Shown here piece after piece: positions 6,538 through 63,039 of a stretch of DNA of 64,000 nt. Where the stretch lies: the NCBI GenBank assembly GCA_902384795.1, contig CABMDC010000001.1, positions 79,429 to 143,428 on the forward strand. Direction: 5' to 3'. The notes below the pieces were generated by a model. That model made no database searches and was not told the DNA's origin. It saw only the letters and a program-made list of their open reading frames with translations. Each line of letters opens with the position of its first letter. Position 1 is the stretch's first letter. The position numbers and the translations under genes were made by a program. The stretch is from Candidatus Gugararchaeum adminiculabundum (lineage in GTDB: Archaea; Micrarchaeota; Micrarchaeia; Burarchaeales; Gugararchaeaceae).

Positions 6538-6563
6538 GCAGCGAGTAATTTTGAGTGATGTTT

Positions 6564-11869: not shown

Positions 11870-11910
11870 AAATCAAAATGAATTGAAATGAAATTTGAAA
11901 GATGGTTTGA

Positions 11911-12099
11911 ATGGAACAAAAAGAAAAAAAGAAACTGAACCCGATTGAGCGCGAACTCATGCACAAGTTCAAGGGAAAGAACGCACGCAAGTGCAGGTTC
12001 TGCGGAACTGCCCGCGGATTAATCCGCAAGTACAAGCTGCAGATTTGCAGGCGGTGCTTCCGCGAGGTTGGCGAGAAAATCGGATTCAGGAAATATTAG
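11911..12099 (+). CDS. rps14: 30S ribosomal protein S14 type Z (zinc-binding, uS14)
   Basis: 62 aa with CRFCG...CRRC zinc ribbon. Confidence 0.92.
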
Positions 12100-31641: not shown

Positions 31642-32500
31642 CAGATAACCTCGTTTGTTTCTTATTCTGCTTTTCGTAATCTAGACGTTTATTTGTTAGT
31701 TCTATATATTGCTTTTCAATTTCGAAACCGATAAATCTTCTTCCAAGTTTAAACGCAGCAAGACACTCACTACCAGATCCACAAAATGGCACTAGAACTA
31801 GGTCATTGGGGCGAGAAGTTGCTAAAATAATCCTTTCACATATTCGCAATGGTTTTTGAGTCGGATGTTTACCAAACCGCAACTCTTCCGGTTTTTTATT
31901 GTTTGGGATATCCCATACCGTTCTCATCTGTTTCCCCCGCTTTTTAAGGAGATCTTCTTTACAGTCCATCTCTTTTGTGTCTTGGTAATTAAACGTGTAT
32001 CTACGCCTACCCCCCCCGGTGTGCCCCCATAAAAGAGTCTCATGGCTTGCAGTAAATCTCCTCCCTGCAAGGTTTGGGAAAGAATTCCGTTTGTACCAGA
32101 TGATTTCGTTAATTATCTCTATACCCAGTTTTTGGAATAAAACATTAGTGACTCCTATATTGTGGTATGTCCCATAAACCCATATCGAACCAGTCGGTTT
32201 TAAGACCCTCTTTGCTTCGTTCAACCATATTTGGGTAAAATCCCAGTAATTTTGAAACGTCATATTGTCCCAATCGACTATTACCTTGTCCCAGTTGCCC
32301 CCCATACCATTTAGTTTTACGCTATTGTTCCATCTAAGTGGTTTGCCTTTCGAAAGGTTATATGGCGGGTCAGCAATAATGAGGTCAACAGACTCAGCAG
32401 GCAATTTCTTCATGCCTTCTATACAATCCCCGTTGATAATCCTATTAACGAAAGATGTCAGTTGGGAATCATTAGTGGCACTTTCATTTTTCATCTTCAC
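31634..32500 (-). CDS. N6-adenine/N4-cytosine DNA methyltransferase, beta class (DpnA/MboIB/HinfI-like)
   Basis: N-terminal catalytic IIADPPYN and C-terminal SAM motif VLVPFCGSGSECLAAF. The circularly permuted beta order. Overlaps the downstream MTase by 8 nt, so they form an operon. Confidence 0.85.
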   Translation of the reverse strand: MKMKNESATNDSQLTSFVNRIINGDCIEGMKKLPAESVDLIIADPPYNLSKGKPLRWNNSVKLNGMGGNWDKVIVDWDNMTFQNYWDFTQIWLNEAKRVLKPTGSIWVYGTYHNIGVTNVLFQKLGIEIINEIIWYKRNSFPNLAGRRFTASHETLLWGHTGGGRRRYTFNYQDTKEMDCKEDLLKKRGKQMRTVWDIPNNKKPEELRFGKHPTQKPLRICERIILATSRPNDLVLVPFCGSGSECLAAFKLGRRFIGFEIEKQYIELTNKRLDYEKQNKKQTRLSGD

Positions 32501-32685: not shown

Positions 32686-35463
32686 CTATTCAATAAATAT
32701 GCTCGGCTTATTGGGCTGGGAAAACTCCGCCTTCTTTTTGTGCGCCTCTCCCATTTTCGCGGCATCCTCTTCCTTCATCACTGAAAATTCGCAGGAAAAC
32801 TCTTTTCCCAAAAATTCCGCAGCCCCTTCCAGCACTTTCACTTCTTCCTTCTGGCTCATCAACTTCGAACTCAGTCCCGCAACGTTTTTCACATACTGCT
32901 CCACTGCCTTGGCCACCATCTTTGCATAGGGCTTGACTTCAGGCAGAGCCATTGCCTTTTTCATGCTCGTATCAAATCTTTTCTCAGCATAAACAATTTC
33001 ATACACTTTTCTCTTCCAGTCGCTTGCGCAGTAGATTGAAATCTTCTTTGGCGGCTCGGTCCTCTTTATCATCTTCAGGATATTCTCAGTATCCTCAAGC
33101 AATGAAATCACGAGCTGCTCAGCCCTTTCCGCATTCTCATCGTACTTGGCAGACGCCTTTGGAAGCTTCTGCTCCACCACCATTCCTTTCTTCGTTCCTT
33201 CCAGTTTCTCCCAAAGCTCCTCAGCCAGGTGCGGCATGAAAGGTGAAACAAGTAAAACCCATTCTTCCAGAAGCTTCCGCAAATTCTGCTTCCCGTTCCC
33301 GATCCTCTTCTGGTACCACCTAATGTCATTAATCGTATTGTAAAAAATCTCCTGAGCCACTTCTCTTAGCTGCAATTGCTCAAACAATTCCTCGGCGTGG
33401 GCAACTCTTTTCCCCCAGCGTGAGGCAAGCCACTTGTCCGCATCGCTCTTTCCCCACTCCGCTTTGTCCTTGTTTTTCACGCTCTGCTCAATCAAATCAT
33501 TTATGATTTTTATCCTGGCATCAATCCCCTCGGCAAGCGTCTGGTTGAAATCGCTGTCAGCCCCAAGCTCAGCCCCGCTCACCACCGAGAACCGAACAAC
33601 ATCCGCTCCAAACTTTTTGACCGCACTTCTCAGCGAAAGAATATTCCCCAGCGATTTGCTCATTTTCCCGCCGTCCATGAGCACGAACCCATTGGTCACA
33701 ATTTGCCTGGGCCAAAGCTCGTGCGGGAAAATCGCCACATGGTTGAAGATGAAAAATGTCAGGTGATTGTGAATCAGGTCAGCGCCCGAGTGCCTGGAAT
33801 CCAGCGGATACCAATAGAGGAATTCTTTTCTCAGCGCGTCCATTTTCGCATTCCCCTTCCCCTCGCCAAGCAAAACATAGTCAAAGAATTTCTCATCCAA
33901 TTCCTCTGGCTTGAGTTCTGCCAATTTGTGCGCAATAGTATAATATGCCATGTAAATCGTTGAATCAGAAAGCGACTCAATCATTTTTTTCTCATCAAAC
34001 GGGAATTTCGTTCCCAGCCCGCTCGCGCGTGCGCAAGCTTTTTCTTTCAGCCAATTAATCGTATATTCATATTCAGCAATCGCTTTTTTCGGAATAATGC
34101 TCATTTTCGCAAAATGCCCGCGCACCTTTTCTTTCCACTCCTCATTCCCATAATCAATGAACCACTGGTCCTCAACTGTTTTCACTCCGCACAGCGCCCC
34201 GCACCTGCAGAAAACAGGCCCATTGATTATCTCATTCATAATTAGCGCTTTCTTTTCTGCAATCATATCTCCCTTGATTTTCTCCTTTGCTTCCAGTACA
34301 GGCTCTCCCTTGTATTTGCCCACAACCATGGTTCCCCCATGCGCCTCCTTCCTATAAACTTCCTTGGTCGCCTCTTCTGCCTTCGGATCATTCTGATCCT
34401 TTACCTGCATCTTCTCAACAACTTCCTTGGCAGGGAATTCCCCGAACCCCTCGATTTTCAGCACTTGAATAATCCCCTGCGCCTTTCCCAAATCCCTTAG
34501 CGCCAAATAGTCATAGGGCGCATGGGCAGGAACGCTCATCACAATTCCTGAGCCGTTTTTTGAATCAACAAAACTCGCTGGGTAAAGCGGCACTTTCTTT
34601 CCGCCCATGGGATTTTCGCATTCTTCCCCGCTTGCAATCTTCACATTCTTTTCTTCAACTGTCAAATCAGAATGCCGCATTTTCAATTTCTCAGCAGCCT
34701 CGGCCGAGACCACAAATTTCTCCCCGTTGAATTTCACTTTCACATAATTCGCTTTCGGGTTGAACCAGACATTGGTCACTCCGTAAATAGTTTCAGGCCT
34801 GAATGTGGCAGCCACAAGGAAGCCATCCTTATACTTGAATTTTATGAGCACATATTCGCCAAGCTCAGGGTCCACATCTCCCTTGGTATCATGGGAGCCG
34901 ACCGCATTATTGTCGCGCGGGCACCAGGGAACCGGATGCGAGCCCTTGGTAATAAATCCAAGCCGCTTCAATTTTCTAAATTGCCACTCAATGAATTTGT
35001 TGAACCGGGGATCAAAGGTGTAGAACTTCCTTCTCCAGTCAATGGAAAATCCCATCTCCTGCATTCCCTGCTCGATCTCCTTGGAGAAATAGGTCACCAA
35101 TTCCTTTGGGTCAGTCAATTCCGCAGCTTTCCCCCTCGGGATTCCATAAATGGTCTCAAAAATTTTCAGCAGCTCCTCATCCTTTTCGGCAATCCGTTTC
35201 GCCATTGCCAAAATTGGAGTTCCTGTTACGTGAAAAGCCATGGGCAGGAGCACGTTCTTCCCCTGCATCCTCTTGAATCTTGCATAAACGTCAGTAGTGG
35301 TGTAGGTTCTCGCATGGCCGATATGCTGGGGCGAATTCGGGTAGGGGAACGCGGCGGTCAGATAGAATTTTTCCCTTTTATCCGGGTTGCTCTCGTAGGC
35401 TTTCTTTTCGCGCCATTTTTTCTGCCATTTCGATTCAATTAGCTGGTAATCCATCTCTCCCAT
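32686..35463 (-). CDS. leuS: Leucyl-tRNA synthetase (archaeal/eukaryal type)
   Basis: 925 aa. HIGH motif (PYPNSPQHIGHARTY) and KMSKS (GGKMSKSLGN). Confidence 0.95.
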   Translation of the reverse strand: MGEMDYQLIESKWQKKWREKKAYESNPDKREKFYLTAAFPYPNSPQHIGHARTYTTTDVYARFKRMQGKNVLLPMAFHVTGTPILAMAKRIAEKDEELLKIFETIYGIPRGKAAELTDPKELVTYFSKEIEQGMQEMGFSIDWRRKFYTFDPRFNKFIEWQFRKLKRLGFITKGSHPVPWCPRDNNAVGSHDTKGDVDPELGEYVLIKFKYKDGFLVAATFRPETIYGVTNVWFNPKANYVKVKFNGEKFVVSAEAAEKLKMRHSDLTVEEKNVKIASGEECENPMGGKKVPLYPASFVDSKNGSGIVMSVPAHAPYDYLALRDLGKAQGIIQVLKIEGFGEFPAKEVVEKMQVKDQNDPKAEEATKEVYRKEAHGGTMVVGKYKGEPVLEAKEKIKGDMIAEKKALIMNEIINGPVFCRCGALCGVKTVEDQWFIDYGNEEWKEKVRGHFAKMSIIPKKAIAEYEYTINWLKEKACARASGLGTKFPFDEKKMIESLSDSTIYMAYYTIAHKLAELKPEELDEKFFDYVLLGEGKGNAKMDALRKEFLYWYPLDSRHSGADLIHNHLTFFIFNHVAIFPHELWPRQIVTNGFVLMDGGKMSKSLGNILSLRSAVKKFGADVVRFSVVSGAELGADSDFNQTLAEGIDARIKIINDLIEQSVKNKDKAEWGKSDADKWLASRWGKRVAHAEELFEQLQLREVAQEIFYNTINDIRWYQKRIGNGKQNLRKLLEEWVLLVSPFMPHLAEELWEKLEGTKKGMVVEQKLPKASAKYDENAERAEQLVISLLEDTENILKMIKRTEPPKKISIYCASDWKRKVYEIVYAEKRFDTSMKKAMALPEVKPYAKMVAKAVEQYVKNVAGLSSKLMSQKEEVKVLEGAAEFLGKEFSCEFSVMKEEDAAKMGEAHKKKAEFSQPNKPSIFIE

Positions 35464-35527
35464 GGGCTATTCTTTGCGCCGACAACTATTTTTAACTAAC
35501 CCCGCGGATTGGAGGCAGGCAATGAGC

Positions 35528-36691
35528 CTAGCCCCCCTCAATGCCCTCAACAAGCAGGCCTTTTGCAAAAGCAGTTTGGATTTCAGTCCAATTTTGGCCC
35601 AGTTCGCTCCTGTACCTTCCGTCGCTCGAACCTTGCACCAGCTCTTTTATGTGTTTTTCATCCCTGGCTTCAATGGATCCCTTCAATTCCTTGAGCAGAT
35701 CGATTCTTTTCGCGATTTCAGGAAATTTCGCCCTGAGTTCTTCGTCTTTTACTCTGATCACTTTTTCAAGCGTGCCCATTTCCTTTTCCATGGCAATGCG
35801 CGCATCGTCCCATCTCACATCCCATTTGCCTTTCGCGCCCATTGCATTGTTTATTTCCCTCTGGGTAACCTGCATTGCGGAGAAAACTTTCCTGGCGCTT
35901 GCCCTGCTTCCGGTCTCCCCCCGCACCTCGTCTCTTACTTCGATTATCGGCCTGGGCGCATCGCCCTCTCTCAGGTCCTCTTCCACATACCTTCTTTGTA
36001 TCGCGCTGACATCTTTTCCATCCAGGCGGGTTCCATCCGGCCTTTCATAGAGCCGGGCCGACTGGTTGTAAACATATCTCCTGCCATCCTCTGTTTCAAT
36101 GTAGGATTTCCCGTCATCCGTTGCCCCCATTGTCCAGTTCTGAATTTTTTTCTCCTCTTCCTTTGTTATCCCCAGCGCAGGCCCCAGGGGCGAGGCCGCG
36201 GTCACATCCGGCGTTTCCGCTTTGGTCTTACCCTGAACCATCACAATCTGTTCCTGCGTTCTCTTGACCGCCTCTTCCAGTTGAATTCCATCAGCCATAA
36301 AATTTTCAAAAAGCGCGAATTTTCCTTCCACATACAGTTTCCAGCTGTGCTCATCCATAAAATTTTGCGGAGCCGTGTCCTTGACCATGTTCGCGCTCCT
36401 GCTGCTCTCAACCTGCTGCTGGCGCGCATTATTCAGGGTCTGCATAACCGCCGCCTGGCCCAGCAACATCCTCGCATCCATCTCCAGTTTTGTGGATTTT
36501 GCGAGATTCTCGAGAATCGTTTGCCAGCCGGGCTTATTCACGCCCAGGGCTCTGAAAAGAAGATTCTGGTCATTCTTGAAAGTTTCCCTGATAAACCGGC
36601 TATTGTTCCAAACATTATTGATTGCCTGCAGCACTTGCGCGGGAATTTCGTTTTTCAGCTGCGAAGATTGCGCCCCATCAGATCCCGCCAA
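35528..36691 (-). CDS. Hypothetical soluble protein (387 aa, charged, no TM or signal peptide), divergently transcribed from the paralog array
   Basis: Protein-like composition. The antisense ORFs on + (35462-36872) have garbage-like composition. Confidence 0.6.
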   Translation of the reverse strand: MAGSDGAQSSQLKNEIPAQVLQAINNVWNNSRFIRETFKNDQNLLFRALGVNKPGWQTILENLAKSTKLEMDARMLLGQAAVMQTLNNARQQQVESSRSANMVKDTAPQNFMDEHSWKLYVEGKFALFENFMADGIQLEEAVKRTQEQIVMVQGKTKAETPDVTAASPLGPALGITKEEEKKIQNWTMGATDDGKSYIETEDGRRYVYNQSARLYERPDGTRLDGKDVSAIQRRYVEEDLREGDAPRPIIEVRDEVRGETGSRASARKVFSAMQVTQREINNAMGAKGKWDVRWDDARIAMEKEMGTLEKVIRVKDEELRAKFPEIAKRIDLLKELKGSIEARDEKHIKELVQGSSDGRYRSELGQNWTEIQTAFAKGLLVEGIEGG

Positions 36692-36807
36692 GGCATCACC
36701 GCTAATTCACGCTCATCCGTCATTTATATTCCTTGTTCTTCCCCTTTGCCAAGCAGGTTTGCCGATGGCAATAATTTTTAAGCTGGAACCAGCAAATTCC
36801 CCCTTGC

Positions 36808-38106
36808 ATGATGCTCGAATCGCTAGCCTTACTAGCCCTGGACCCGGCTGCCATAGCCTACAACTTTGCTAACGGCTGGGGGCCTATAGCGCTAATCGCC
36901 TTAGCAGTCTCCTTCATCACCACCGCCCTGTCATTCATGTTCTCCGACGTCCTGAACTCCCCTGAGCTGAAGGCCTGGGCGAAAAACGAGCTGAACGAGG
37001 CGCTGATTTCCGGCTTCCTGGTGATTTCCCTCCTGACCCTTCTCACCATCTCAAGCAGCCTGATCCAGGGAATGACCGGCTCCAACGATCATTTTGCGCT
37101 CGGCAGGGAATACCTGGAATTCATGCACACCCGCCTGCGCACCCTCTACTATTCCATGCTCTGGAAGGATTTCTACATCGGCATCATCTCCTCCATGGGA
37201 ATGTCGGTTCCTGTGCCCGAGCCGGGAATACTGAACATAGGAATGCAGCTCCAGCCCCTGCTCGGGCTGATGCAGATAAACAACGCGCTCACGCTCCTGC
37301 TCGATTCGGTTGCGGTAATGGAAGTTTCCATCGTCGCGCAGCAGGCGATACTGGATTTCGTGCGAGACTACGCACTCCTGGTTTTCCTGCCCATAGGGCT
37401 CACCCTGCGCGCGTTCGTGCTCACGCGCAAGGTCGGCTCGACCCTTATCGCCGTCGCAGTGGCCATGGCGCTGGTCTATCCCCTTGCGCTCTACCTGAAC
37501 CTGCAAATAATCGAGAATACCAGCATGGCGCCGCACCAGGTGAACCCCTATTTCTACAACGAGTCCTACAAAAAAGGCTCGGTCCTGACCGATACGCAGA
37601 AAGGCGTTTTCGGAGGGCTCAACCTGGAGCTTTCCCAGTCGGACAGCATTCTCAAGCCCAGCGATAGCTGCCCTGACGGGACCTCGCCGGTTTCCACCTC
37701 CGATTCCATCGCAGGCCTGCGCTCGTGCTTTGTGAAACAGGTCGTTGAATACGACCCGTACAACAAGAATAGCGGGGTCAACTGCGACCCTTCGTTCTAC
37801 TCGTGCAAGCTGGCGGCCGCCTACAGCAACGCGAAAATGTTCATGAAAAACATTTATGTGAAATCAGTCACCTTCTTCAAGACAATGTACACGTTCATCT
37901 CGAATTTCATGTTCTTCTCGCCAGCGGATTACGCGAACATGGCCTATGCGAGCCTGATGACAGACCTCGACCCGGTAATGCAATTGATGGTCGCGGCAGT
38001 CCTTCTCCCGTTCCTGGACATCATAATCGTTGTGACATTTTTCCGGAGCATCTCGCTCACGCTTGGCGGAGAGGCGCAGCTGTTCGGAATGCAGAAATAC
38101 GTTTAG
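36808..38106 (+). CDS. Polytopic membrane protein, paralog 1 of 6 of a novel family (AWAKNE / LPxGxxLRxFxxTR motifs)
   Basis: 432 aa with about 5-6 TM segments. AWAKNE at 36973-36990. FLPIGLTLRAFVLTRKVGSTLIAVAVAMALVYP. A large Cys-containing extracytoplasmic loop. TATA aataattttta about 30 bp upstream. Confidence 0.8.
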   Translation: MMLESLALLALDPAAIAYNFANGWGPIALIALAVSFITTALSFMFSDVLNSPELKAWAKNELNEALISGFLVISLLTLLTISSSLIQGMTGSNDHFALGREYLEFMHTRLRTLYYSMLWKDFYIGIISSMGMSVPVPEPGILNIGMQLQPLLGLMQINNALTLLLDSVAVMEVSIVAQQAILDFVRDYALLVFLPIGLTLRAFVLTRKVGSTLIAVAVAMALVYPLALYLNLQIIENTSMAPHQVNPYFYNESYKKGSVLTDTQKGVFGGLNLELSQSDSILKPSDSCPDGTSPVSTSDSIAGLRSCFVKQVVEYDPYNKNSGVNCDPSFYSCKLAAAYSNAKMFMKNIYVKSVTFFKTMYTFISNFMFFSPADYANMAYASLMTDLDPVMQLMVAAVLLPFLDIIIVVTFFRSISLTLGGEAQLFGMQKYV

Positions 38107-38214
38107 TGGTTAAAATAAAAAATGAAACAGAAAATGGGATGAAGAATGGAAACAAAAAACGAAAGATGAAAAATAAACTGAAATAAAAAGAATCGAAGCA
38201 TGGGATGAAGCAAA
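38107..38214 (+). repeat. Purine-only (A/G) spacer with reiterated ATGAAA/ATGGAA units between paralogs 1 and 2
   Basis: The + strand is almost entirely A and G. Contains a K-rich mini-ORF (MKNGNKKRKMKNKLK). Confidence 0.6.
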
Positions 38215-39102
38215 ATGGTCTGTGACATAAACGTGGGATTCAACCTGGACGTGGGCATTGCGCTAATGCTCATGCTGCTATTGGTCTCCATAGCCTACAT
38301 GCTTTCCCAGGCTTTCAAGCGCCAGGACTGGGAGCTTTGGGCGCGCATGGAACTGGTGCAGGTCGGAGTCTCATTCCTTATCGTGATTTTCATAGGCGGC
38401 TTTGCCTATTCCATGTGCAGCGCGTCTGTTTTCCTGGCAGGCGGCGACCCTTTTGAAATCAGCGAGCAGTACATCTCAAACATCAACTGGCACTACCTGT
38501 TCCCCGCACATTACCAGCTCCAGGTTTTGAGCTTCCAGTCAAGCGCGCTTTCAACGCTTTACACAAAATTTGGCACTGGCAACTGGAATTTCCAATTCCC
38601 CGTTTTCCCCGGAGTGGGGGGAATTTCCCAGGTGAGCACAACGCTCATGGTCATGCTGAGCCCCATAAGCCTGAGCATGGTTTCGCAGCTGGTGCTACTC
38701 CAGTTCATACAGACCATCGCCCTGCAGGCGATCCTTCCGGTCGGGCTCATACTGCGGATTTTCCCGGTCACGCGCGATGCCGGCTCGTTCCTGATCGCGA
38801 GCGCAATCGCGTTCTACATAATTTTCCCCTGGACCTATGTGGTGAATGCCAAGGCGTTCGAATCGATCTGGGGCAATGACCCGATTGCAAAAATGACCGA
38901 AAGCGTAAATGCCCATTTCTCCATGGCGAATTTCATGCCGGGATTTTTCACAGGTTTCATGAACCCCGAACGATTCATGCTCCTCTACGCGACGCTCGCG
39001 CGCACAATCCCCCAGGCGCTTTTCCTGCCCGCGCTTTCCATGGTGATCACGGTCACGTTCATCAAGGCGTTCACCAAAGTGATGATTCGGAAATTGAATT
39101 GA
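38215..39102 (+). CDS. Polytopic membrane protein, paralog 2 of 6 (shortest, 295 aa)
   Basis: YMLSQAFKRQDWELWARMEL and ILPVGLILRIFPVTRDAGSFLIASAIAFYIIFP. Lacks the C-terminal LTxLI tail. Confidence 0.75.
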   Translation: MVCDINVGFNLDVGIALMLMLLLVSIAYMLSQAFKRQDWELWARMELVQVGVSFLIVIFIGGFAYSMCSASVFLAGGDPFEISEQYISNINWHYLFPAHYQLQVLSFQSSALSTLYTKFGTGNWNFQFPVFPGVGGISQVSTTLMVMLSPISLSMVSQLVLLQFIQTIALQAILPVGLILRIFPVTRDAGSFLIASAIAFYIIFPWTYVVNAKAFESIWGNDPIAKMTESVNAHFSMANFMPGFFTGFMNPERFMLLYATLARTIPQALFLPALSMVITVTFIKAFTKVMIRKLN

Positions 39103-39121
39103 CATTATTAGGTTGGTTGAA

Positions 39122-40357
39122 ATGACGGCATTGCTCGCAATTTCGGTATTCGGGCTATGGAGCTCGTGGTTTGCGGTAGCCATGCTCGCGGTCGTCATTT
39201 CCTTTTTCGTTGTCGCGTTTGTTTACATGGTAAGCCGGATTCTTTCGAGCCCGCAGCTGCTGGCCTGGGCAAAGCAGGAGCTGGGGCAGGCAATCGCGTC
39301 CGCGGCGATAGTTGCCGGCCTGCTGGCGTTCCTTTTCCTGTTCAACCAGGTGATCGTAGGGGTGGTGAATTCCGAAGTCCAGGGCGGCGGCCCGCTTTCG
39401 GCAAGCGGTGTCATATGCAACGACCAGCACATCGACACCTGCCACGTCGACCTCGCGCTCTATTACGTCGACCTCATGTTCCTGAATGTGGAGGCCATGA
39501 GCAATTCAATCCTAAGGATGCACTCGCTCGCCATGATGTGGGGCAACACCATCGTCTATTCCGAACAATTAATAGAGCCCTGGGGCAGCTTCACCATCCA
39601 GCCGTTTGCCAGCGTGACCATTATCGCCGAAACCCTGGGGGTCGCGTTTGACATCCTTATGAAATCCATGTTCATCATCCGCATCCAATACTACCTCCTG
39701 TGGTATTTGCGCGAGGCCATTTTCCCGGTGCTCCTGGTGTTCGGGGTGATCCTGCGCACATTCTTTTTCACGCGCAGGCTCGGGGGCCTGCTCATCGCCA
39801 TCGCCATCTGCTCCTACATAATAATGCCCATGATGTACATCGCCGGCTTCATGCTCCTCAGCCAGAATACGGACGGCAATTACGTGGCGTTCCTGGACAC
39901 CTCCAAGCTCGAGGCAATCTCCTCGCCCACCTTTGACATAACCACGGACCCGAACTATGCCCAGGGCATGAGCCTGGATGCCGCGGGCCAGAGCAAGTTC
40001 AACCTGATGATCAAGCGGATCAAGCAGTTCACCCAATCAGGGCTGGTCAAGTCATTCGGGAACAGCATTGCGCCTGATTTGTCTGACGCCAACAAAATTG
40101 CCAAAGACCCCTATAACCCAACTGTGCTCAGGCCCGAATGCCTTTTGACCCGGCCCGAGCCGGAGCGCGACACGGTAATCTGCGACAACACCTGGCTGCT
40201 TTCCAAGAACGGGGTGCTCGGCTCGGTCGCGCTGCTGCTGATCTATGCCTCAGTCATCCCATTCATCGCAATGCTCGCAACCATCACCGGAATAAAGAGC
40301 CTGTCACCGCTGCTCGGAGGGGACGTGGAAATAGCAGGCCTGACCCATTTGATTTAA
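39122..40357 (+). CDS. Polytopic membrane protein, paralog 3 of 6
   Basis: YMVSRILSSPQLLAWAKQEL. LLVFGVILRTFFFTRRLGGLLIAIAICSYIIMP. C-terminal GDVEIAGLTHLI. SD AGGTTGG lies 6 nt before ATG 39122. Confidence 0.8.
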   Translation: MTALLAISVFGLWSSWFAVAMLAVVISFFVVAFVYMVSRILSSPQLLAWAKQELGQAIASAAIVAGLLAFLFLFNQVIVGVVNSEVQGGGPLSASGVICNDQHIDTCHVDLALYYVDLMFLNVEAMSNSILRMHSLAMMWGNTIVYSEQLIEPWGSFTIQPFASVTIIAETLGVAFDILMKSMFIIRIQYYLLWYLREAIFPVLLVFGVILRTFFFTRRLGGLLIAIAICSYIIMPMMYIAGFMLLSQNTDGNYVAFLDTSKLEAISSPTFDITTDPNYAQGMSLDAAGQSKFNLMIKRIKQFTQSGLVKSFGNSIAPDLSDANKIAKDPYNPTVLRPECLLTRPEPERDTVICDNTWLLSKNGVLGSVALLLIYASVIPFIAMLATITGIKSLSPLLGGDVEIAGLTHLI

Positions 40358-40428
40358 TTTGAATAAAATAAAACGAAGTGAAATAAAATGGAAAAAGTAA
40401 GAAAACGGAAAAGATAAAGTGAAATGAA
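40358..40428 (+). repeat. Purine-only spacer between paralogs 3 and 4
   Basis: gaataaaataaaacgaagtgaaataaaatggaaaaagtaagaaaacggaaaagataaagtgaaatgaaatgg. A/G-only with ATG-initiated K/R-rich mini-ORFs. Confidence 0.6.
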
Positions 40429-41721
40429 ATGGAAGAAAAAATAGAAAACAAAAAAACAAACGCGCGCGCAAGGATTCCCGAGCTCGTGCTTCTTTCGCTA
40501 TTGGTGATCGCATCCTTCTACGTTCCGTTCGCGCTCGCGCTTCCGGCAATTCCCACCGCTTCTCTCCAAATAGTCCCCTCCGGAACAATAACCGCGCTGC
40601 CCGAGGACACAACCTCTGTTCCAAAAACCGATTTGGGAAGCGGGTTCGGCCAGGCGCTCAGCTGCGACGCTTCCTCCATTTTCAGCTTCAGCTGGCTTCC
40701 CATGGCGCTGGTGGCAATACTTGCGGTCATACTGATGCTCGCGCTGGCCTACATGATGTCCGTGATTTTCGCGCTCCAGCCCCTGGCGGTGTGGGCAAAG
40801 AACGAGGCAAGCCAAATCGCGGTCACAACCCTGCTAATCATACTGCTTCTCCCCTCAACGCAAGTTTTCTCCAATCTCGGTTGCGCCATACACAAGGAAA
40901 ACACCTTTGACCGCGCCATCGGCTATGTGAAATCAGTGAGGATGAAACTGCTGGTCGATTTCGGGGCCCTCACATCGCTCAATGTTTTCATAGGCCTGAT
41001 CTCCTCGGTGCAGATCAACCTCACCCCGCTGCGTATGGGCGTGTTCTTCAGCTTCGGCTCTGCGTTCAAGCCGATACTTGACTGGATCGGAATCGGCTCC
41101 CAGGCGATGCTTCTGGGAATAGGCGAAATGACCGTGCACGAGCTCGCGCTCTATTTCGTGCGCGACCAGATGTTCGCGCTCTTCCTGCCCCTGGGAATTT
41201 TCCTGCGCAGCACGCCTTTCACGCGCAGGACAGGCAGCGCGCTCATTGCCATTGCCATCGGGCTTTACTTCGTTCTCCCAATCACGCTCCTGGTGAACCA
41301 GGTCATCTACGACGACCACTATGGAAGATATGCGGATGATTTCGCGGCCTATGCCAAGGCCTATGGGCTCGGGGACGTCTGCGCTCCCACCCAGACCTCA
41401 TCCCTGGCCGCCCCCTGCCTTTCGCGCAGCATCGCATCCCCTATTTTGATTTACGTCCATAATTTCATGACGCACTTCGGGCTTCTCACAATCATGGGCC
41501 TAGCCTTCGGCGTGCTCGCCCAGGCGGCCACTGCCCCGCTCATAGTCGCCGGCATGGTCACGCTGGTGTTCTCGGTTGCCAATGATTTGATTTTCATGCT
41601 GGTGATATTCTGCATACTGCTGCCGATCATAAACATCACGCTCACGCTTTCATTCATAGCATCGCTTGCCAAGGCGCTGGACAGCGACATAAATCTGAGC
41701 GCGCTGACAAAATTGATTTGA
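40429..41721 (+). CDS. Polytopic membrane protein, paralog 4 of 6 (extra N-terminal signal/TM segment)
   Basis: YMMSVIFALQPLAVWAKNE. FLPLGIFLRSTPFTRRTGSALIAIAIGLYFVLP. C-terminal DINLSALTKLI. Confidence 0.8.
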   Translation: MEEKIENKKTNARARIPELVLLSLLVIASFYVPFALALPAIPTASLQIVPSGTITALPEDTTSVPKTDLGSGFGQALSCDASSIFSFSWLPMALVAILAVILMLALAYMMSVIFALQPLAVWAKNEASQIAVTTLLIILLLPSTQVFSNLGCAIHKENTFDRAIGYVKSVRMKLLVDFGALTSLNVFIGLISSVQINLTPLRMGVFFSFGSAFKPILDWIGIGSQAMLLGIGEMTVHELALYFVRDQMFALFLPLGIFLRSTPFTRRTGSALIAIAIGLYFVLPITLLVNQVIYDDHYGRYADDFAAYAKAYGLGDVCAPTQTSSLAAPCLSRSIASPILIYVHNFMTHFGLLTIMGLAFGVLAQAATAPLIVAGMVTLVFSVANDLIFMLVIFCILLPIINITLTLSFIASLAKALDSDINLSALTKLI

Positions 41722-41840
41722 AAAATAAAAATGGAAAGAATGGAAATGAAAAAATGGAAGAAAAAAAGAAAATAAAAAGAAAATGAAAAACAGAAAATAG
41801 AATTTAAATGAAAAAATGAAAATAAGAAGAGGAATAGATT
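41722..41840 (+). repeat. Purine-only spacer between paralogs 4 and 5
   Basis: 119 nt of A/G with repeated (a)atggaa / atgaaaa units. Contains the mini-ORF MERMEMKKWKKKRK. Confidence 0.6.
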
Positions 41841-43208
41841 ATGATTGAAATATTGGCTCTGCAAGGAATACAAAAATTCACGACCCTCCTAGACGCACTC
41901 CCGCTTCCAGGCCAGTTCCTTCCCACTAGCAATGCACCGGATCTCGCCTGCACGCTTGCGAAGCCGGTTGCAACCGCCTGGGATTCCGTGAGCCAGGGCA
42001 TCCCCTGCATGTGCCACTCCTCCTGGGTCAGCAATTCGTGGCAGGTAAACTGGTTCGCCTGGCAGGGCATAGGCCTCCTGGCGATCATGATCGGCGCGTT
42101 CCTAATTGCGGTCGTTTACATGCTAAGCGAAATCCTCGGGGGCATGAACCTCCTTGCCTGGCACAGGATGGAAGTAACCCCTCCGCCATCGGGCAATGCC
42201 GGAATGAAGGCCTGGGCAAAAAATGAGATGTTCCAGGTTTTCACCACTGCGATAATCTTCCTCAGCATAGTGGGGCTTGTGAATTTCGCCTGCGCAGTGA
42301 ACACCACTTCCATCTTCTTTTCAGGATACAAATATACCGCGCTGGATACGAACAATAACATAGTCCAGGTGCCCCCCTACCAGAACATGTTTGACGAGGC
42401 GATCCGCTACCTGGATTCGCTCTCCTTTTACTCGGGCTTTGCATTCCTCTATTCGTTTTTCAGCAATCTGGGAATCTCGTTCGTCCAGGGCTTCATCTGG
42501 ACAAGCAGGCCCGGAGGACTTGGCGTGATGGCCCAGCCCCTGGCAGGCCTTTCGCCGCTCATGAGTTCCTCGGGAATGGTGATGTCCACAACCATGATCG
42601 CCTTCCTGACCGCGGCAGTGCAAGTCCAGGTTCTCAGGTTTGTGCAGGCCACCATGCTCAGCGTTTTCCTTCCCATCGGTCTTCTCTGCCGGTGCATCGA
42701 GCCCCTGCGCGGGTTTGGCGGAATGCTCATCGGCCTTGCGCTGGTGATGTTCATCCTCTATCCTGCGCTGCTGGTGATGAACGAGGCGGTTGTCGCGCCA
42801 TCGCTTGCCTCCTACCAGTGGAGCGCGAATTTCTATTTCGAAAAAACAATCCCGGCCGAACCAGACCCAAACGACCCCACCAAGGAGATCCCGACCACCA
42901 TGTACGGAGTTGGCGGATTCGCCAACAAGTTTGCAGCCTCTGACCCTAACGACCCGAACAGCGGGGCAAGTTTCTTCTCAAGCCCTACGGCCTACTCCGC
43001 CAGCGCGCTTCCGAAAACAATGTTTGACAAACTGGTCTCCCCATTCAGCTACCTATACTCGGCAATAATCCGCCTTGTTGCGGTAATTTTCGTAGGAGTC
43101 TTCGCGCTCACGGCCCTGAATTTCGTGATACTCACCGCAGCCGTGCGCGAGCTTACAAAGCTTCTCGGAGAAGAAGCCGACATAACCAACCTGACAAGGA
43201 TGATATGA
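41841..43208 (+). CDS. Polytopic membrane protein, paralog 5 of 6 (extra Cys-containing N-terminal domain)
   Basis: YMLSEILGG...KAWAKNEM. FLPIGLLCRCIEPLRGFGGMLIGLALVMFILYP. C-terminal EADITNLTRMI. Confidence 0.8.
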   Translation: MIEILALQGIQKFTTLLDALPLPGQFLPTSNAPDLACTLAKPVATAWDSVSQGIPCMCHSSWVSNSWQVNWFAWQGIGLLAIMIGAFLIAVVYMLSEILGGMNLLAWHRMEVTPPPSGNAGMKAWAKNEMFQVFTTAIIFLSIVGLVNFACAVNTTSIFFSGYKYTALDTNNNIVQVPPYQNMFDEAIRYLDSLSFYSGFAFLYSFFSNLGISFVQGFIWTSRPGGLGVMAQPLAGLSPLMSSSGMVMSTTMIAFLTAAVQVQVLRFVQATMLSVFLPIGLLCRCIEPLRGFGGMLIGLALVMFILYPALLVMNEAVVAPSLASYQWSANFYFEKTIPAEPDPNDPTKEIPTTMYGVGGFANKFAASDPNDPNSGASFFSSPTAYSASALPKTMFDKLVSPFSYLYSAIIRLVAVIFVGVFALTALNFVILTAAVRELTKLLGEEADITNLTRMI

Positions 43209-44341
43209 TGCCCATGAATCTGATTCCATCTGCCATTGGCGGAATTCCCGCGCTGCTCCAGGGCGCCTCATTCATCGAGACCGGGCAGCCGGTGCAGGGC
43301 GGATTCCGCGACGTGTGGACAGGAAGCCTGGCCGGCGGCCAGAGCTGGGAATGGTACGCATTGGCGGCAATCATGCTCACATTTTTCGCAGCCCTGCTCA
43401 TGTACATGTTCTCCATCATCATGCAGTCGGACAGCATGAAGAAATGGGCGCAGAGGAATTTCATCGAAGTGCTCGCCTCGGTCCTCATAGTGGTTCTTCT
43501 CATGGGAATCGTTTCCGGAGTAATTGCCAGCGTCGGGGTACTTACCGAGACCATGGCGCACGACTACCATTTCGACCTGACCGTGATCGCCATGGGGAAA
43601 AATCCGCAAAGCCCGTTCGACCTGACCTACGCGTTCCTTTCAAAGCAGATAGGGTGCGAGAAGAAATACTTCATGTATTCCTACTGGGCGAACTATGCGG
43701 TCGAGTTCGTTGAGAAATCCACCATCGGCACCGTCTGGGGAGAGCCGATTTCCGGCTGGCCGCTCGCCCCGAGCACAAACCTGTTCCATTCCATCAACCA
43801 TTCCATCTCCTACCTGCTGATTGGGCAGTACCTCATGTGGCACCTGCTCTGGTTCTGCGAGCACACCATGTTCGTGTTCTTCCTCCCGCTCGGAATAGTC
43901 CTCAGGACCTTCCCGCTCACGCGCGGGGTCGGCGCATTTCTCATGGCGCTTGCCATCGGCATGTTCCTTATTCTTCCGCTCACTTTCTCCCTGCAGATCG
44001 TGCTCTATACTAGGGGGCTTCCGCAGACCGCGAGCAGCACGAGTTCTGTGACCGGCTGCGCGATCCAGCCGGTTTCCGCGGACATGAGCGCCCTGGTGCA
44101 GGAGCAGTGCAACAACGGGGAGGCAAGCACCGTGGGCGCGCAGGTTTACGAATACCTGAAAAACAGGGACAAGTCCATCGGCATGGGCGAGCGCCTGAAA
44201 GCCGAATTGACTATGCTCACATTCATCCCCTTCTGGTTCGCGCTCGCGGCGGTAATGACCCTGACCGCGGTGCGCGCCATGGCGCAGCTTTTCGGGACAG
44301 ACACGCAGGAGCTGGGCAGGGGAATGTTCAAATTGCTGTAG
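43205..44341 (+). CDS. Polytopic membrane protein, paralog 6 of 6
   Basis: YMFSIIMQSDSMKKWAQRNF. FLPLGIVLRTFPLTRGVGAFLMALAIGMFLILP. Overlaps paralog 5 by 4 nt (ATGA), indicating translational coupling. Confidence 0.8.
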   Translation: MMPMNLIPSAIGGIPALLQGASFIETGQPVQGGFRDVWTGSLAGGQSWEWYALAAIMLTFFAALLMYMFSIIMQSDSMKKWAQRNFIEVLASVLIVVLLMGIVSGVIASVGVLTETMAHDYHFDLTVIAMGKNPQSPFDLTYAFLSKQIGCEKKYFMYSYWANYAVEFVEKSTIGTVWGEPISGWPLAPSTNLFHSINHSISYLLIGQYLMWHLLWFCEHTMFVFFLPLGIVLRTFPLTRGVGAFLMALAIGMFLILPLTFSLQIVLYTRGLPQTASSTSSVTGCAIQPVSADMSALVQEQCNNGEASTVGAQVYEYLKNRDKSIGMGERLKAELTMLTFIPFWFALAAVMTLTAVRAMAQLFGTDTQELGRGMFKLL

Positions 44342-44404
44342 AGCGCACAGTGTACGAACAGAACCGCTCTACCCTTTCAATATCCAGAGCGAAACCATAA
44401 CTCC

Positions 44405-44448
44405 GCGAAGCAAGACTCCGAAGGCGCAGCTTCGTCGCTTGCTTCGCT
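44405..44448 (+). terminator. Nested inverted repeat gcgaagcaag ... cttgcttcgc downstream of the paralog array
   Basis: 10-bp arms separated by a roughly 24-nt loop that itself contains cgaagg...cttcg. Followed by an A-rich tract. Confidence 0.4.
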
Positions 44449-44515
44449 CTCTTGCCGTTCACTAAAAATAGAAAATAAAAAAAGAAGAAAAAAATAAAAA
44501 AAGAAATTCAGCCGC

Positions 44516-44920
44516 TTATTTCGCAGCTTCAAAATATTCCTTCACTGATTTGTCCACCCACAATATGTAGATGTAAATCAAGCCAATTATCGTTCCTACC
44601 GGAACTGCAGTGAGGTTCAGAACTGCGCCCACTGTGACAAGAATTCTTGCCCAGCTCTTTCCTTTCAAAAGCTGCAATGCGACGAAAATTCCAACGGCCC
44701 CGGCAACTATCATGAGCACTCCGAAGATCCCGAGCATTCCGGCTATCGCGGCAGCCATGCTTCCCATTCCCGCCTGTTCCAGCGCCTGGGTTATCGCCCC
44801 GGTCACCAGTCCTGCCGCGACTATGAGCAGCAATCCTGCTAGCGCCGCAACTGCGGATTCAATCGCAACGAGCGCTCCTATTATTGTCAATAATGTCGGC
44901 CTTTCCGCCACTAAAACCAC
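44516..44920 (-). CDS. Small membrane protein (134 aa, about 4 TM segments). GTG start.
   Basis: Hydrophobic Gly/Ala-rich TM segments. Shares a duplicated leader/promoter with the next gene. SD GAGGTGG lies 5 nt before GTG. Confidence 0.6.
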   Translation of the reverse strand: MVLVAERPTLLTIIGALVAIESAVAALAGLLLIVAAGLVTGAITQALEQAGMGSMAAAIAGMLGIFGVLMIVAGAVGIFVALQLLKGKSWARILVTVGAVLNLTAVPVGTIIGLIYIYILWVDKSVKEYFEAAK

Positions 44921-44972
44921 CTCTGGAATAAGTAGTCTCGTTACTTCCTATATTAATCTTTTCATCTGTGTT
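44908..44972 (-). promoter_or_regulatory. Promoter/leader copy 1 (TATA ttaatatagg plus SD GAGGTGG) for the 134-aa membrane protein gene
   Basis: A 25-nt core identical to that at 45315-45339, plus a conserved TATA element. Confidence 0.5.
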
Positions 44973-45033
44973 TCGATTAAGCAAAAGAGAAAAAAAAGAA
45001 AAAAAATATAAAGTAAAAAAGAAAAAGCCAGCT

Positions 45034-45327
45034 TCACCGGTCTTCCAGGCTTATGGGCGGCCTTTCATCCGTCAAAAGATAGTGGTACGATACGAACTCG
45101 AACATTTTCTTGACATAGCGCGCGCTCCACTTGTGGAAGCTTTCGCTTCTCTTTTTGGCGAACAATATGTGGAACCATTGCAGGAAAATGCAAAAAGCTC
45201 CAATGAACCCGACAATCATGAGCACCAGGTAAATCGGAATCCAGTAGACGCATCTCACCAGCAGTTCCATTCTGCTAGCGTTTTCCTCATAGCCGATATC
45301 GATTTTCACGCTTTCCACTAAAACCAC
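45034..45327 (-). CDS. Small membrane protein (97 aa, 2 TM segments). GTG start.
   Basis: The same leader CCACTAAAACCACCTCTGGAATAAG and TATA as the upstream gene. N-terminus MVLVE like its neighbour. Confidence 0.55.
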   Translation of the reverse strand: MVLVESVKIDIGYEENASRMELLVRCVYWIPIYLVLMIVGFIGAFCIFLQWFHILFAKKRSESFHKWSARYVKKMFEFVSYHYLLTDERPPISLEDR

Positions 45328-45380
45328 CTCTGGAATAAGAACTCGCTTTGCGCCCTATATTAATGTTTTCTTCCTTCGCA
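45315..45380 (-). promoter_or_regulatory. Promoter/leader copy 2 for the 97-aa membrane protein gene
   Basis: Duplicate of 44908-44972. Confidence 0.5.
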
Positions 45381-45527
45381 GTTCCGATCGGTTTCATTGC
45401 ATGGCCAACTTCGCTTTCCAGCATAGGCCCTGCAACCCTCATGATACGGTAAAAACAAGAAACCTTCGAAAAGCGGCTCGCGATCACTCGCTCGCAGTTT
45501 TTCTCAGCATTAGAGAAATAATTTTTC

Positions 45528-47929: not shown

Positions 47930-48130
47930 GCCGATCTTCCTCAGCGCTTCAGCATAGGACCTAGCGCCCTCTCCCCCCGGACCTCAAACTTCGGTATCAT
48001 GCTTAAAATTCTGCCGTGATAAGAATAAAAAACAAGTGGTAATAAGCGAAAGGAAATGCTTACGTAGAATTTCACTTCCACAGCGCCGCCAGCGCAATAC
48101 TAATATAGTATAGCGCCACAATTTTCCCCT

Positions 48131-51100
48131 ATGAAGCGTGCGGGAGTCAGGTTTGAGCTAATATTAGCATCATTGCTCATTCTCATTTCAGCGGTTTTCG
48201 TCTACGCGCAAAGCGCTCCCTCGCCCGGCTCGCTCACTATCACTGACTTTGACGGAAATGCGGTCGCTTTCCAGGCGCAGTTTTTCCTGCCAGGCACCCA
48301 GGTGCAGAAATCCCCGAACGACGGCGGAGCCTATGATGTGCAGATCACGGTGAACAATTTCCCTGCAACCATTCACCTCAACCGCACAATCTATTCCGGC
48401 CAGACCCTAATCAAAGTTTCCCAGCCCGCTCCAACAAACCCGCCAGCCCGCTACACCCTTTCCAGCTCGCTCCGCGTAGTCGTCCAATCCGATTCCTCGT
48501 TTGAAACAATCGAAGTGCGCAAGCCGGCTTCTTCCCCTGTGATTTTCGAATGCAATAATTTCAATGAAAACAAGAACGAATGCCCCTCCTGGTCCCGCGC
48601 CAAGGCGCTGAACCCAAAAATCGGGGACGAATACCGCTATTCAACGCGCACTTCGCAAATAGTCCTTGCAGAAGGGACGCTTGACCCGAATGCAAAAACG
48701 CTCACAGGAAAAGTGAAGGTGCGCGACCGGGCGGGCACTGAAATAATCCTGGGCCAGGCGGAGCTTTTCGAGCCGGGCACCACGCTCGCCGCTGAATCCG
48801 ATTCCCAGGTCGCGGACGCGAACGTGAACATTTACGGAAAAAAAGTAAGGAGCATAAGATTCCACGGCCTTGACCTGAACCGGACAACCATCGACCTGAG
48901 CGTTGATAATGCGCCCAATGCAATAATAAACGGAAAAACATACCTCAAGTCGTTTTCCATTGACACGACCGGATTGAATTTCACCTCGGCCACTGTCACC
49001 TATGACAGCACAGGCGGCCCGCTTTACAAATGCAAGGATTGGAATTTCGCCACTTCCAAATGCCTGGGCGAATGGGTTACGGTGCCCACGGCCTCGTCTG
49101 ATATCCTTGGTTACATGACCTTTGAAATATTCCCCGGCGACCCGCTCTACACCCAGGGCTATACCTACAACTTCACGTTGAACTATTCCTCGGTGACTTC
49201 CTCCACCTGGACCAATGCGGCCTATGTCAATGCCAGCGACACGGGCTATGCGACCTGCACCGCAAAGACAAAGCGAATGATACTCGCGCTAACTCCCCTT
49301 ACCGTAGGGGGAACCGGCGATCGAATTACCAGCGTGGTAATGGCAACCCGGTGGAAAGCAAGCTCCACCGATGCCACGGACGGTATAACATTGACTCCCT
49401 ATTTCAGCGGAGTTGCCGGCACCGCATCAAGCTACTTCGGCTGCTCGACCACCGAAGCATACAAGCAATTCGACATCACCTCCCAAAAATCACCCTGGAC
49501 CTGGGCCGATGTAAACTCACTCTCCTATGCAGTTGACTCGGTTGCCTCGGGAAGCTATGGCTGCGGCACCATAAGCGACAACTACATTTACATAAATGTC
49601 TCATTTGTCCCGGACGCCACAGGGCCGACAGTCCAGCTCACCTCTCCTGCGAACATCACCATATACTCCGGAGGGTCTGTCAATTTCACCTACAATGTGA
49701 CCGATGCCTCGACCATTGCCAACTGCACCCTATGGGTCGACAATGTGGCGGTGATCAACGACACCACCTCCACCTTCACCATGAACACCACATTGAATTT
49801 CACCTACACTCCCACGGGCACATCAACACACACCTGGAATATCCAGTGCACCGACACCTCGTTCAACAAGAATGTTGCAAATGCCACGAGGAATTACACC
49901 CTTATTCCAGACACCACTGCGCCGGTTGTCACGCTCCTAGGCCCCGCCACTTCCGCTTCCTATAACGCCTCCAATGTCACGTTCTATTATAGCGTGACAG
50001 ACCTTTCGGGCATTCAAACATGCTCCCTGTTTTTGCAGGGAAACGCGGTTTTGAACAGGTCGATGTTAATCACCAACCAGTCCTCCACTAACTTCACGCA
50101 ATACAACCTGCCGGTCGGCACCTACAATTGGAGCGTCAAGTGCACTGACAATTCGACATTCCAGACAAACAGCGCGACCGCAGCAAACAATTCCATCACC
50201 ATCACTACTTCCACTGCATCGCTAACCGTGTCCGACAATGAAATGGACAACGAGTCAATGGGCATTCCTCCTGGCTATTCGGCAGTAAACGGAATCGGTT
50301 CCAGCACTGACGCCTTTTTCTTCGCAAACTACACCGATGCCGGAGGCAATGAAATCCCCCCGAAGTGGCACGATTCAGTGTTTAGCATGGCTTACACCAC
50401 CCTGGGGAACATAACCATGATGCGCAACCCGAACGAACTGCTCTGGGTCACGGCACCAGGTGCTGCTACCATAACATCTATTAAGGCAGACCTGCGTCAC
50501 ACCGGAGTGAAATCCGATGTAATCGTAGTGGTGATGAGCCTAGGTCTATACGCCTATGACCAGTTCGGGAATCTTCTGTGGACCTTTCCAATTGCAACTA
50601 CAAACACCAACTCCCCCCTGGCAATAGGCGACTTTGACAAGGACGGATATGAGGACGATACCATTTTCAGTGACGGCATGTATGTCTATATATTCAATGA
50701 GAGCGGCGACGTGCTCGCAAACTCCTCATTGTTTTACGGCCATCATTCCATAGCATCAGTGGCTGTAGCAGACTTTGACGGGGACGGCTACAGGGCAGAG
50801 GCAGCAGTGGCGGCCTATTCCAACGACACTAGCGGTGCAAATCCGGACGTGGTCGCTTTCATGAACGGTTCGCTCGGAAATTACCAGAACTTCACTTTTG
50901 CCTCGCTTGCCCGCGGCCTTGGGACTCCGCGCCACAATTACTTGGCACTAGGCGACTTTGACAGCGACGGATATGAGGATGATTTGGCCGTTGCGACCTA
51001 TTCCACCAGCACCTATGCCATCAAGAATGACTCAACGCTCATCTGGAACTATACTACGCCAGCAAACCAGAATTCCACGCGCGTGGCTGCTATAGACTAC

Positions 51101-53884: not shown

Positions 53885-53981
53885 TGCAGCAGATTCATAT
53901 TTTTCCAGTTGTTTATTCCTTCTTGGAATTTTTCGAAACCTATTTATACCCCGCCCTACAATCTTTAGTTAATAATCTGAG

Positions 53982-60325: not shown

Positions 60326-60399
60326 ATCTCCAAACTGGTTGGGCTAGTCAGCTAGCCTTTCTTTTTTCTTTTTCATTTTTTTAGTAAAACGTTCGCGCG

Positions 60400-61045: not shown

Positions 61046-61077
61046 AATTTATATTCTTTTTCTCCTAAAATGATTGC

Positions 61078-62976: not shown

Positions 62977-63039
62977 TGCCATCATTCCGTTCAGCCAATC
63001 CTGGCTAATTATATAAACCACCTCTTCCAATAACTCTTT

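Follow-up and report, generated by a model that had tools for sequence, protein, structure and literature searches.

Cytosine-poor, A-rich spacers as candidate intercistronic linkers in a conserved six-gene membrane-protein operon of Candidatus Gugararchaeum adminiculabundum

Unstructured A-rich initiation regions, or ribosome standby sites, upstream of internal cistrons are a general principle in prokaryotes. In the operons of heteromeric complexes, tight junctions and -4 overlaps between stop and start codons are linked to termination-reinitiation coupling (PMC6728339, PMC10666635), which is abolished by about 20 nt of added distance (PMC10666635), and in archaea transcription termination is dictated by U-tracts (PMC8716108). 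Three spacers, named S1, S2 and S3, were analyzed here in a six-gene operon (genes A to F) of Candidatus Gugararchaeum adminiculabundum, within a stretch of 64,000 nt of contig CABMDC010000001.1 (hereafter the window). This archaeon of the Micrarchaeota (DPANN) is represented by a metagenome assembly from an Australian legacy waste site, the sole genome of its order (PMC8561730), and one of the paralogs encoded in the window is 100% identical to a protein of it. With moderate confidence, and on the evidence of sequence, we regard S1–S3 as non-coding linkers within a single polycistronic messenger, transcribed from an ancient operon of six membrane-protein genes; most likely they are an unstructured, lineage-specific filler that carries ribosome-binding sites (RBSs), and neither peptide-coding nor recombination elements.

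The operon occupies 36808–44341 of the plus strand and was recognized from its co-directional open reading frames (ORFs), their coding scores, the motifs shared by their products and the gene order kept in relatives. In the ORF map of the window, which was self-trained and carries a coding score, gene A lies at 36808–38106, B at 38215–39102, C at 39122–40357, D at 40429–41721, E at 41841–43208 and F at 43205–44341. The three gaps to which an earlier, sequence-only reading had drawn attention fall exactly on the A/B, C/D and D/E junctions: S1 (38107–38214, 108 nt), S2 (40358–40428, 71 nt) and S3 (41722–41840, 119 nt). On the coding strand, S1 consists of 63 A (58%), 23 G (21%), 15 T (14%) and 7 C (6%), with a purine fraction of 0.80; S2 of 43 A (61%), 14 G (20%), 12 T (17%) and 2 C (3%), also 0.80; and S3 of 80 A (67%), 21 G (18%), 17 T (14%) and 1 C (1%), 0.85. 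The earlier description of these gaps as almost exclusively A and G is accurate as to their A-richness and depletion of C (80–85% purine, 1–6% C), but it overlooks T, which makes up 14–17% of the bases; 28 of the 44 Ts lie within ATG or ATA. When both strands of the 64 kb were scanned for 71-nt windows with a purine fraction of at least 0.78 and at most 0.07 C, S1–S3 alone were found (about 0.1% of windows). Gene D keeps the A-rich style of S2 for its first 11 codons.

The antiquity of the operon was examined in relatives by a locus scan with an alignment of gene C and two distant homologues, taking one genome per species, which gave 21 loci. Twenty of them carry the label Micrarchaeota/Micrarchaeia, the remaining one "Candidatus ainarchaeum sp.". 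In all 21, A, B, C, D, E and F have their best matches in that order. The products are distantly related polytopic membrane proteins with shared motifs, and the pairwise identity among the six proteins of Gugararchaeum is 21–29%. Because the order is kept in 21 loci and the identity is so low, the sequences indicate that A–F is an old, fixed six-subunit operon rather than a recently amplified family, and S1–S3, being flanked by co-directional genes of this conserved cluster, have the setting of intra-operon spacers. The junctions of the relatives are tight: of 100 measured, with a median distance of 4 nt, 93 fall below 30 nt, and -4 overlaps are common. Since the relatives' junctions are tight, the long spacers of Gugararchaeum appear to be derived and lineage-specific.

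Two junctions of the same operon keep the usual form. E and F share an ATGA stop/start overlap (43205–43208, plus strand), of the coupling type that is the operon's norm in relatives, and B and C are separated by an ordinary tight junction of 19 nt (39103–39121, plus strand), approximately within the distance of coupled junctions. The likeness to coupled ATGA/TGATG junctions (PMC6728339, PMC10666635) thus extends to E/F, to most junctions in the 21 relatives (-4 to +10 nt) and to the gene products, since paralogous membrane subunits are a class enriched in such overlaps. S1–S3 differ: at 108, 71 and 119 nt they lie far above the limit of about 20 nt, and the coupling architecture would be lost there unless mini-ORFs relay it.

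The RNA of the spacers is almost without predicted structure. The minimum free energies (MFE) of S1, S2 and S3 are -0.1, 0.0 and 0.0 kcal/mol, whereas coding segments of the same length from the operon average -17 to -33 kcal/mol, and only 13–22% of the spacer bases are paired even when 60-nt flanks are folded along. On the sense strand of S1–S3 we could find no run of four or more Ts and no stable hairpin; runs of four or more As number 23. By these signs (no such T-run, MFE near zero) there is no terminator between the genes that flank the spacers. This is the opposite of the terminators found inside operons (PMC10450193).

Shine-Dalgarno (SD)-like cores of 4–5 nt begin about 9–16 nt before all five downstream starts, namely in GGGATGA in S1 (38202–38208), AGGTTGGT in the B/C junction (39110–39117), AGTGAAAT in S2 (40418–40425), AGAGGAA in S3 (41828–41834) and AAGGATGAT, and they match the GGTGA motif preceding the ribosomal protein (r-protein) cistrons of the window. 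Their use by the ribosome is presumed from this position and likeness.

The spacers are built by repetition. Reiterated units were correctly noted in the sequence-only reading, and in S1–S3 together we counted ATGAAA 6 times, ATGGAA 5 times and GAAAA 13 times. Short units stand head to tail in degenerate tandem form in all three, as in slippage repeats; S1 holds an ATGRAA-rich purine tract, and S3 holds degenerate units of period 11–25, in which TRF recognized arrays at 41721–41759 (period 14), 41763–41789 (period 11, 93%) and 41722–41825 (period 25). The exact words common to S1–S3 are only 10–12 nt long. Expansions also occur in relatives, at other junctions of the operon, where perfect arrays of 14 nt (five copies) and 13 nt (two copies) were found. 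In one locus (L020), from another Micrarchaeota MAG, the A/B junction measures 118 nt and includes the 14-nt unit GCGAGAATGATGAT five times in perfect tandem (6856–6938 of that locus), probably a recent, length-variable expansion; the 88-nt C/D junction of L009 has GCGAGGAATGAAT repeats, and the 62-nt B/C junction of L021, with 76% A, has ACGAAATGAAAAA repeats. These three expansions have a purine fraction of 0.69–0.84 and at most 0.10 C and are full of ATG and TGA, in genomes of 53–58% GC. Because such independent expansions are purine-rich, C-poor and repeat-built, they suggest that slippage at the junctions, filtered for purine-rich, C-poor units, recurs in the group. S1–S3 thus resemble microsatellite-like slippage expansions in their degenerate tandem units of 11–25 nt, with perfect arrays in relatives, but differ in being confined to units that are purine-rich and C-poor on the sense strand. 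As a possible source of the units, duplication from the downstream start region was tried and rejected (P 0.06–0.64): it was suggestive for S2 (P 0.11) and L009 (P 0.06), and S1, S3 and L020 gave no indication of it. A loose scan of the relatives for purine windows was dominated by purine-rich coding DNA.

Tracts of this kind might act as DNA, and the sequence-only reading had proposed that they drive recombination and copy-number change of the paralogs. On the evidence of sequence this idea falls because the operon order is fixed, the identity low and the words shared by the spacers short; six genes in the same order in 21 loci, with 21–29% identity among the paralogs and shared words of 10–12 nt, offer no substrate for homologous recombination. 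A wider version, in which the homopurine tracts are recombination or slippage hot spots for paralog number, formers of triplex (H-DNA) or histone-excluding A-tracts, could draw on their richness in purine and A-tracts, on the degenerate 11–14-nt periodicity and on the perfect fivefold repeat of L020, which shows that such junctions can be unstable. Yet a T every few bases interrupts the mirror-repeat homopurine runs and there is no clear phasing at 10.5 nt, and we consider a role at the DNA level highly improbable.

Under the favored reading, that S1–S3 are linkers in the messenger, the junctions would have been tight at first, as they still are in relatives, and the spacers would have grown in the Gugararchaeum lineage by slippage-type amplification of short A-rich units. 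With C excluded, the RNA could not pair with its own Gs and would stay single-stranded near the SD-like core and the next start. As U-tracts terminate transcription in archaea, T-runs would be barred from the sense strand, and AT-richness would be realized as A instead. The spacer would then be an unstructured landing zone, with the downstream cistron initiated independently by its SD-like core and not by stop/start coupling, and slippage-made spacers would be tolerated, since no downstream gene would need the preceding one for its initiation. ATGs, stops and mini-ORFs rich in lysine and arginine (K/R) would be by-products of composition and of the amplified units. Read on the antisense strand, S1–S3 are U-tracts, and they would incidentally stop antisense transcription there. 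The selective reasons supposed here, like co-transcription itself, are put forward from sequence.

The mini-ORFs had a larger part in the sequence-only reading, which took them for regulatory or ribosome-stalling upstream ORFs (uORFs) encoding polybasic peptides, or for reinitiation spacers. The three peptides quoted there were read correctly. As a signal, however, their polybasic character was rejected: K+R over all reading frames of S1–S3 is 0.36–0.48, compared with 0.41–0.54 in same-base shuffles, no greater than base composition gives. The peptides are conserved neither between S1–S3 nor in the relatives, which mostly lack spacers, and the uORF-controlled alternative structures looked for in S1–S3 (terminator/antiterminator, RBS-sequestering hairpin) are absent, the MFE being near zero. 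Composition, lack of conservation and lack of switchable structure together speak against a regulatory or stalling function. ATG occurs 16 times in S1–S3, compared with 5.3 expected from mononucleotide shuffles (p<0.001) and 14.8 from dinucleotide shuffles, and its count is fully explained by dinucleotide content; ATGRAA occurs 11 times, against 1.7 and 6.3 (p=0.016), respectively.

The idea of a reinitiation spacer is compatible with the sequence. Mini-ORFs cover 49–81% of each spacer with largest steps of 9–30 nt, the last of them terminates 8–16 nt beyond the true start in all three spacers, and comparable tiling is seen in five of the seven expanded junctions of relatives. Yet the tiling is no better than in dinucleotide-preserving shuffles (P 0.15–0.66 for the maximum gap, 0.37–0.68 for coverage). 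Ribosome sliding is known for A-runs longer than 7, and the longest A-run in S1–S3, of 7, falls short of the lengths that cause it. That the mini-ORFs are functional, whether as a relay of very short ORFs restoring coupling or as polybasic or poly-A stalling uORFs tuning downstream expression, therefore seems unlikely: the tiling, its recurrence in relatives, the position of the last stop and an ATG content about threefold over mononucleotide expectation (likewise in L020 and L009) are in its favor, as is the coupling-built remainder of the operon (-4/+1 junctions; PMC10666635), but that tiling is ordinary once dinucleotides are preserved, K+R follows composition, no SD precedes the mini-ORFs, no peptide is conserved and the ATG counts are inflated by tandem amplification of a few seed units. 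A more specific version, which we hold to be very unlikely, would join a stop-proximal AAAATAAAA box, a C-free tiled purine tract and the final termination 8–16 nt past the next start into one device keeping coupling over about 100 nt; the terminating ribosome would be handed on through ATGA and steps with gaps of at most about 15 nt, replacing normal coupling at three junctions, and relatives would have invented such a device independently where ATG/TGA-rich expansions recur at other junctions of their operon. A function for the mini-ORF chain or the AAAATAAAA box would bear on how archaea, having lost stop/start coupling, begin translation or transcription within operons.

The promoter of the operon itself is probably the TATA-like box AATAATTTTTAAG (36770–36782, plus strand), about 26–38 nt upstream of the ATG of gene A, which is likely leaderless or near-leaderless. 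Other first-gene promoters in the window are laid out in the same way: a TTATATA-type box lies about 30 nt from the start, and the sequence after the box is rich in pyrimidines. Boxes of this type in leaderless layout were seen, for example, at 532–568, 36770–36807, 48098–48130, 53940–53981, 61040–61077 and 63005–63039, and the pyrimidine-rich stretch between box and ATG has the opposite skew to the intra-operon spacers.

Every spacer also begins with a AAAATAAAA-type box, 0–5 nt after the preceding stop: TTAAAATAAAAAA in S1 (38110–38122), AATAAAATAAAA in S2 (40362–40373) and AAAATAAAAA in S3 (41722–41731). A TATA position weight matrix (PWM) was built from 17 boxes picked by eye in the window and is dominated by A/T; its matches reach 7.1–10.0 bits within the first 8 nt of S1–S3, and that of S1 is one of three matches of at least 10 bits in the window. 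The joint shuffle P of such early matches is about 0.002 (post hoc). These boxes would suit a reading in which each spacer is a promoter followed by a purine-rich 5' leader of about 35–85 nt with an SD-like core, so that B, D and E have transcripts of their own, perhaps beside read-through. We judge this possible but doubtful. The RtcB gene seems to use a similar A-rich box, GTAAATAAAAAC, at about -36 to -27, AATAAA is in excess after stops (in 7 of 65 genes), and internal start sites occur in 53% of the operons of M. maripaludis (PMC10450193); set against these are the A/T dominance of the matrix and the post hoc nature of the test, and the clear promoters of the window, with T/A-alternating TTATATA about 30 nt before the ATG and pyrimidine-rich sequence after it, are the opposite of S1–S3. 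The putative promoters would follow no terminator, the 0–10-nt junctions of the relatives leave no room for promoters, and two of the seven AATAAA boxes stand too near the next start to serve it.

As an observation on the window at large, 7 of 65 genes have AATAAA/AAAATAAAA no more than 25 nt past the stop, where about 0.6 would be expected, always in co-directional gaps; beyond the array it follows the stops at 14621, 19140, 24220 and 24699. An A-rich TATA box, a processing signal and an effect of composition are the candidate explanations.

The r-protein spacers cited in the sequence-only reading exist and share the C-depletion and a TGAA-type motif with S1–S3. Across the window, 44 co-directional gaps measure 15 nt or more, and 19 of these are C-poor (at most 12% C). 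The 16 outside the array belong mostly to the r-protein operon, measure 18–67 nt and typically end in GGTGA 5–9 nt before the start, whereas the C-normal gaps hold the TATA boxes, tRNAs, unannotated genes or T-runs of the window. Runs of five or more Ts number 19 in C-normal gaps and 1 in C-poor gaps; T-runs follow the ends of transcription units. TGAA occurs 34 times in the 16 outside C-poor gaps (5.6 expected) and 13 times in S1–S3 (3.3 expected). An intercistronic signal exaggerated in the array, as had been suggested, is therefore borne out within the 64 kb for C-depletion and the WTGAA motif, but the bias of A over T is specific to the array (T 0.15, A 0.62 in S1–S3; T 0.32, A 0.43 in the outside C-poor spacers). 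TGAA and C-depletion were not enriched in the 21 loci of relatives, where spacers are few, as a Micrarchaeota-wide trait would have them. Extra SD copies were rejected as an explanation of TGAA: in most occurrences the base before it is A or T rather than G, and the motif is scattered over the full length of the spacer. Two gaps in the ORF map are not spacers: 6538–6822 holds an unlisted small ORF beginning ATGGCACGTGAAGAA, and in 11870–11990 the S8 gene probably has its true start near 11912.

This shared style also touches the suggestion that S1–S3 are sites of endonucleolytic processing, by which the messenger would be cut into segments of unequal stability that set unequal subunit levels. 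Long single-stranded tracts do lie immediately upstream of the ribosome-binding sites, the r-protein operon has the same sequence style, and the r-protein operons of Methanolobus contain more than their share of intergenic processing sites, most of them a short way upstream of an RBS (PMC5499594). The Methanolobus signature, however, is a uridine downstream of the cut, and U is a rarer base in S1–S3; no nuclease motif was identified, and the relatives manage without the spacers. We consider processing an improbable function.

Several findings weigh against the linker reading itself. Co-transcription across S1–S3 is an assumption, and a neutral filler would not obviously require 71–119 nt. ATG/TGA enrichment recurs in independent expansions, so that a neutral account needs amplified seed units that happened to bear ATG; the derivation of units from the neighboring start region is not significant (P 0.06–0.64). 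The SD-like cores are not as strong as GGTGA in the r-protein operon, and the AAAATAAAA-type boxes score like the TATA boxes of the window and fit an internal promoter at least as well.

The linkers are most like the A-rich initiation and standby regions mentioned at the outset: they are single-stranded (MFE near zero), A-rich and C-poor, stand directly upstream of an SD-like core and a start, and lie between co-directional genes without terminators. They differ in being extreme within the 64-kb window (71–119 nt long, 1–6% C, 80–85% purine), in that the same operon is nearly spacer-free in relatives, and in that a gain for initiation from the extra length is not evident. In short, no new kind of element is required; the closest description is an unstructured A-rich initiation region combined with simple-sequence expansion, unusually pure and long. 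As such, S1–S3 are a clean case of how non-coding DNA in an archaeal operon is shaped, with cytosine excluded and adenine replacing thymine, so that the RNA cannot fold and forms no U-tract terminator, and they show that a six-subunit operon which is normally tightly coupled can tolerate gaps of about 100 nt.

A fourth tract, 44449–44515, had been grouped with the spacers. It does contain A-runs (44464–44502), but it is only 69% purine, belongs to the neighbor on the minus strand and falls outside the set. On that strand, an oligo-T tract (T5, T4, T7, T7, T7; 44463–44506) starts 14 nt past the stop of the convergent gene 44516–44920, thus presenting multiple U-tracts of at least four shortly after a stop, and a second (T5, T6, T8, T8, T4; 44979–45028) lies downstream of the DUF4389 gene 45034–45327. 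Because U-tracts are the archaeal termination signal (PMC8716108), both are read as terminator-like U-tracts of the minus-strand neighbors, with termination as their presumed function; in their multiple U-tracts right after stops they are like the U-tract terminators that act with aCPSF1. The two small tandem minus-strand genes, 44516–44920 (no family) and 45034–45327, each have a near-identical upstream sequence (ATTAATATAGG...TTATTCCAGAG-GTG) and a multi-T terminator of their own, and 44516–45527 has the appearance of a promoter-gene-terminator cassette that was duplicated. At 44405–44447, 64 nt past the stop of gene F, stands a perfect 10-bp inverted repeat (GCGAAGCAAG ... CTTGCTTCGC, loop of 23 nt), which is followed by no T-run on the plus strand.

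A more interesting by-product of this work is the uncharacterized membrane module of six paralogs conserved across the Micrarchaeota. Sequence searches of the A–F proteins against Pfam, NCBIfam and PDB gave no match, a protein search found no close relative of the Gugararchaeum species, and a search with a paralog profile over 5.8 billion proteins returned only 4. An AlphaFold model of B (all-helical, of medium confidence, pLDDT 67) had no fold match in PDB at E<0.1. An ORF at 35462–36781 was rejected as a seventh member, as it does not align to the family and is antisense to a better-scoring minus-strand ORF. The neighborhood of the operon is similar in several relatives (L010, L011, L016, L018 and L019), with proteins of about 118 residues upstream and one of about 512 residues downstream. 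In L011, the locus whose neighbors were scanned, one of the two upstream proteins gives a weak TrbC/VirB2-pilin-like match, below the Pfam thresholds, and the downstream protein is a HerA/VirB4-type ATPase whose best NCBIfam matches, CedD and CedB, are far below the cut-offs; in L007, a T2SSE ATPase is encoded after the array. The operon may encode the membrane part of a conjugation or Ced-like apparatus in Micrarchaeota.

Elsewhere in the window, the ribosomal cluster S3-L29-...-L5-S8-L18-S5-L30-L15-SecY is present, together with genes for an archaeal LeuRS, RtcB and a ThrRS with the archaeal editing domain, all of which mark the DNA as archaeal. An Rfam 15 scan of the window at the gathering score found three tRNAs only, and no family on the spacers. 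A low-GC island (28774–32500; 0.40–0.45, against 0.51) encodes two DNA methyltransferases (D12 N6-adenine and N6_N4) and a protein of 691 residues without family, and is probably an acquired restriction-modification unit. A gene for an IS200-like Y1 transposase (60541–61017, within the region 60326–61077) has GC-rich hairpins upstream (GGCGCCTTCGGCGCC) and downstream (CCCCCGCCTTTAGGCGGGGG) and is preceded by a T-rich terminator tract (60355–60385). ORF 55497–57299 contains, close to its predicted 5' end, a 40-nt pyrimidine tract (55521–55560; 93% C/T, several T4–T6 runs), probably an internal terminator after 54564–55493, with the next gene starting further downstream. Finally, 48131–53884 encodes a protein of 1917 residues with Ig-like (Big_7) and FG-GAP repeats, likely a giant surface protein, and downstream of its gene are genes without family and one for a MinD/ParA-type ATPase (57324–58106).

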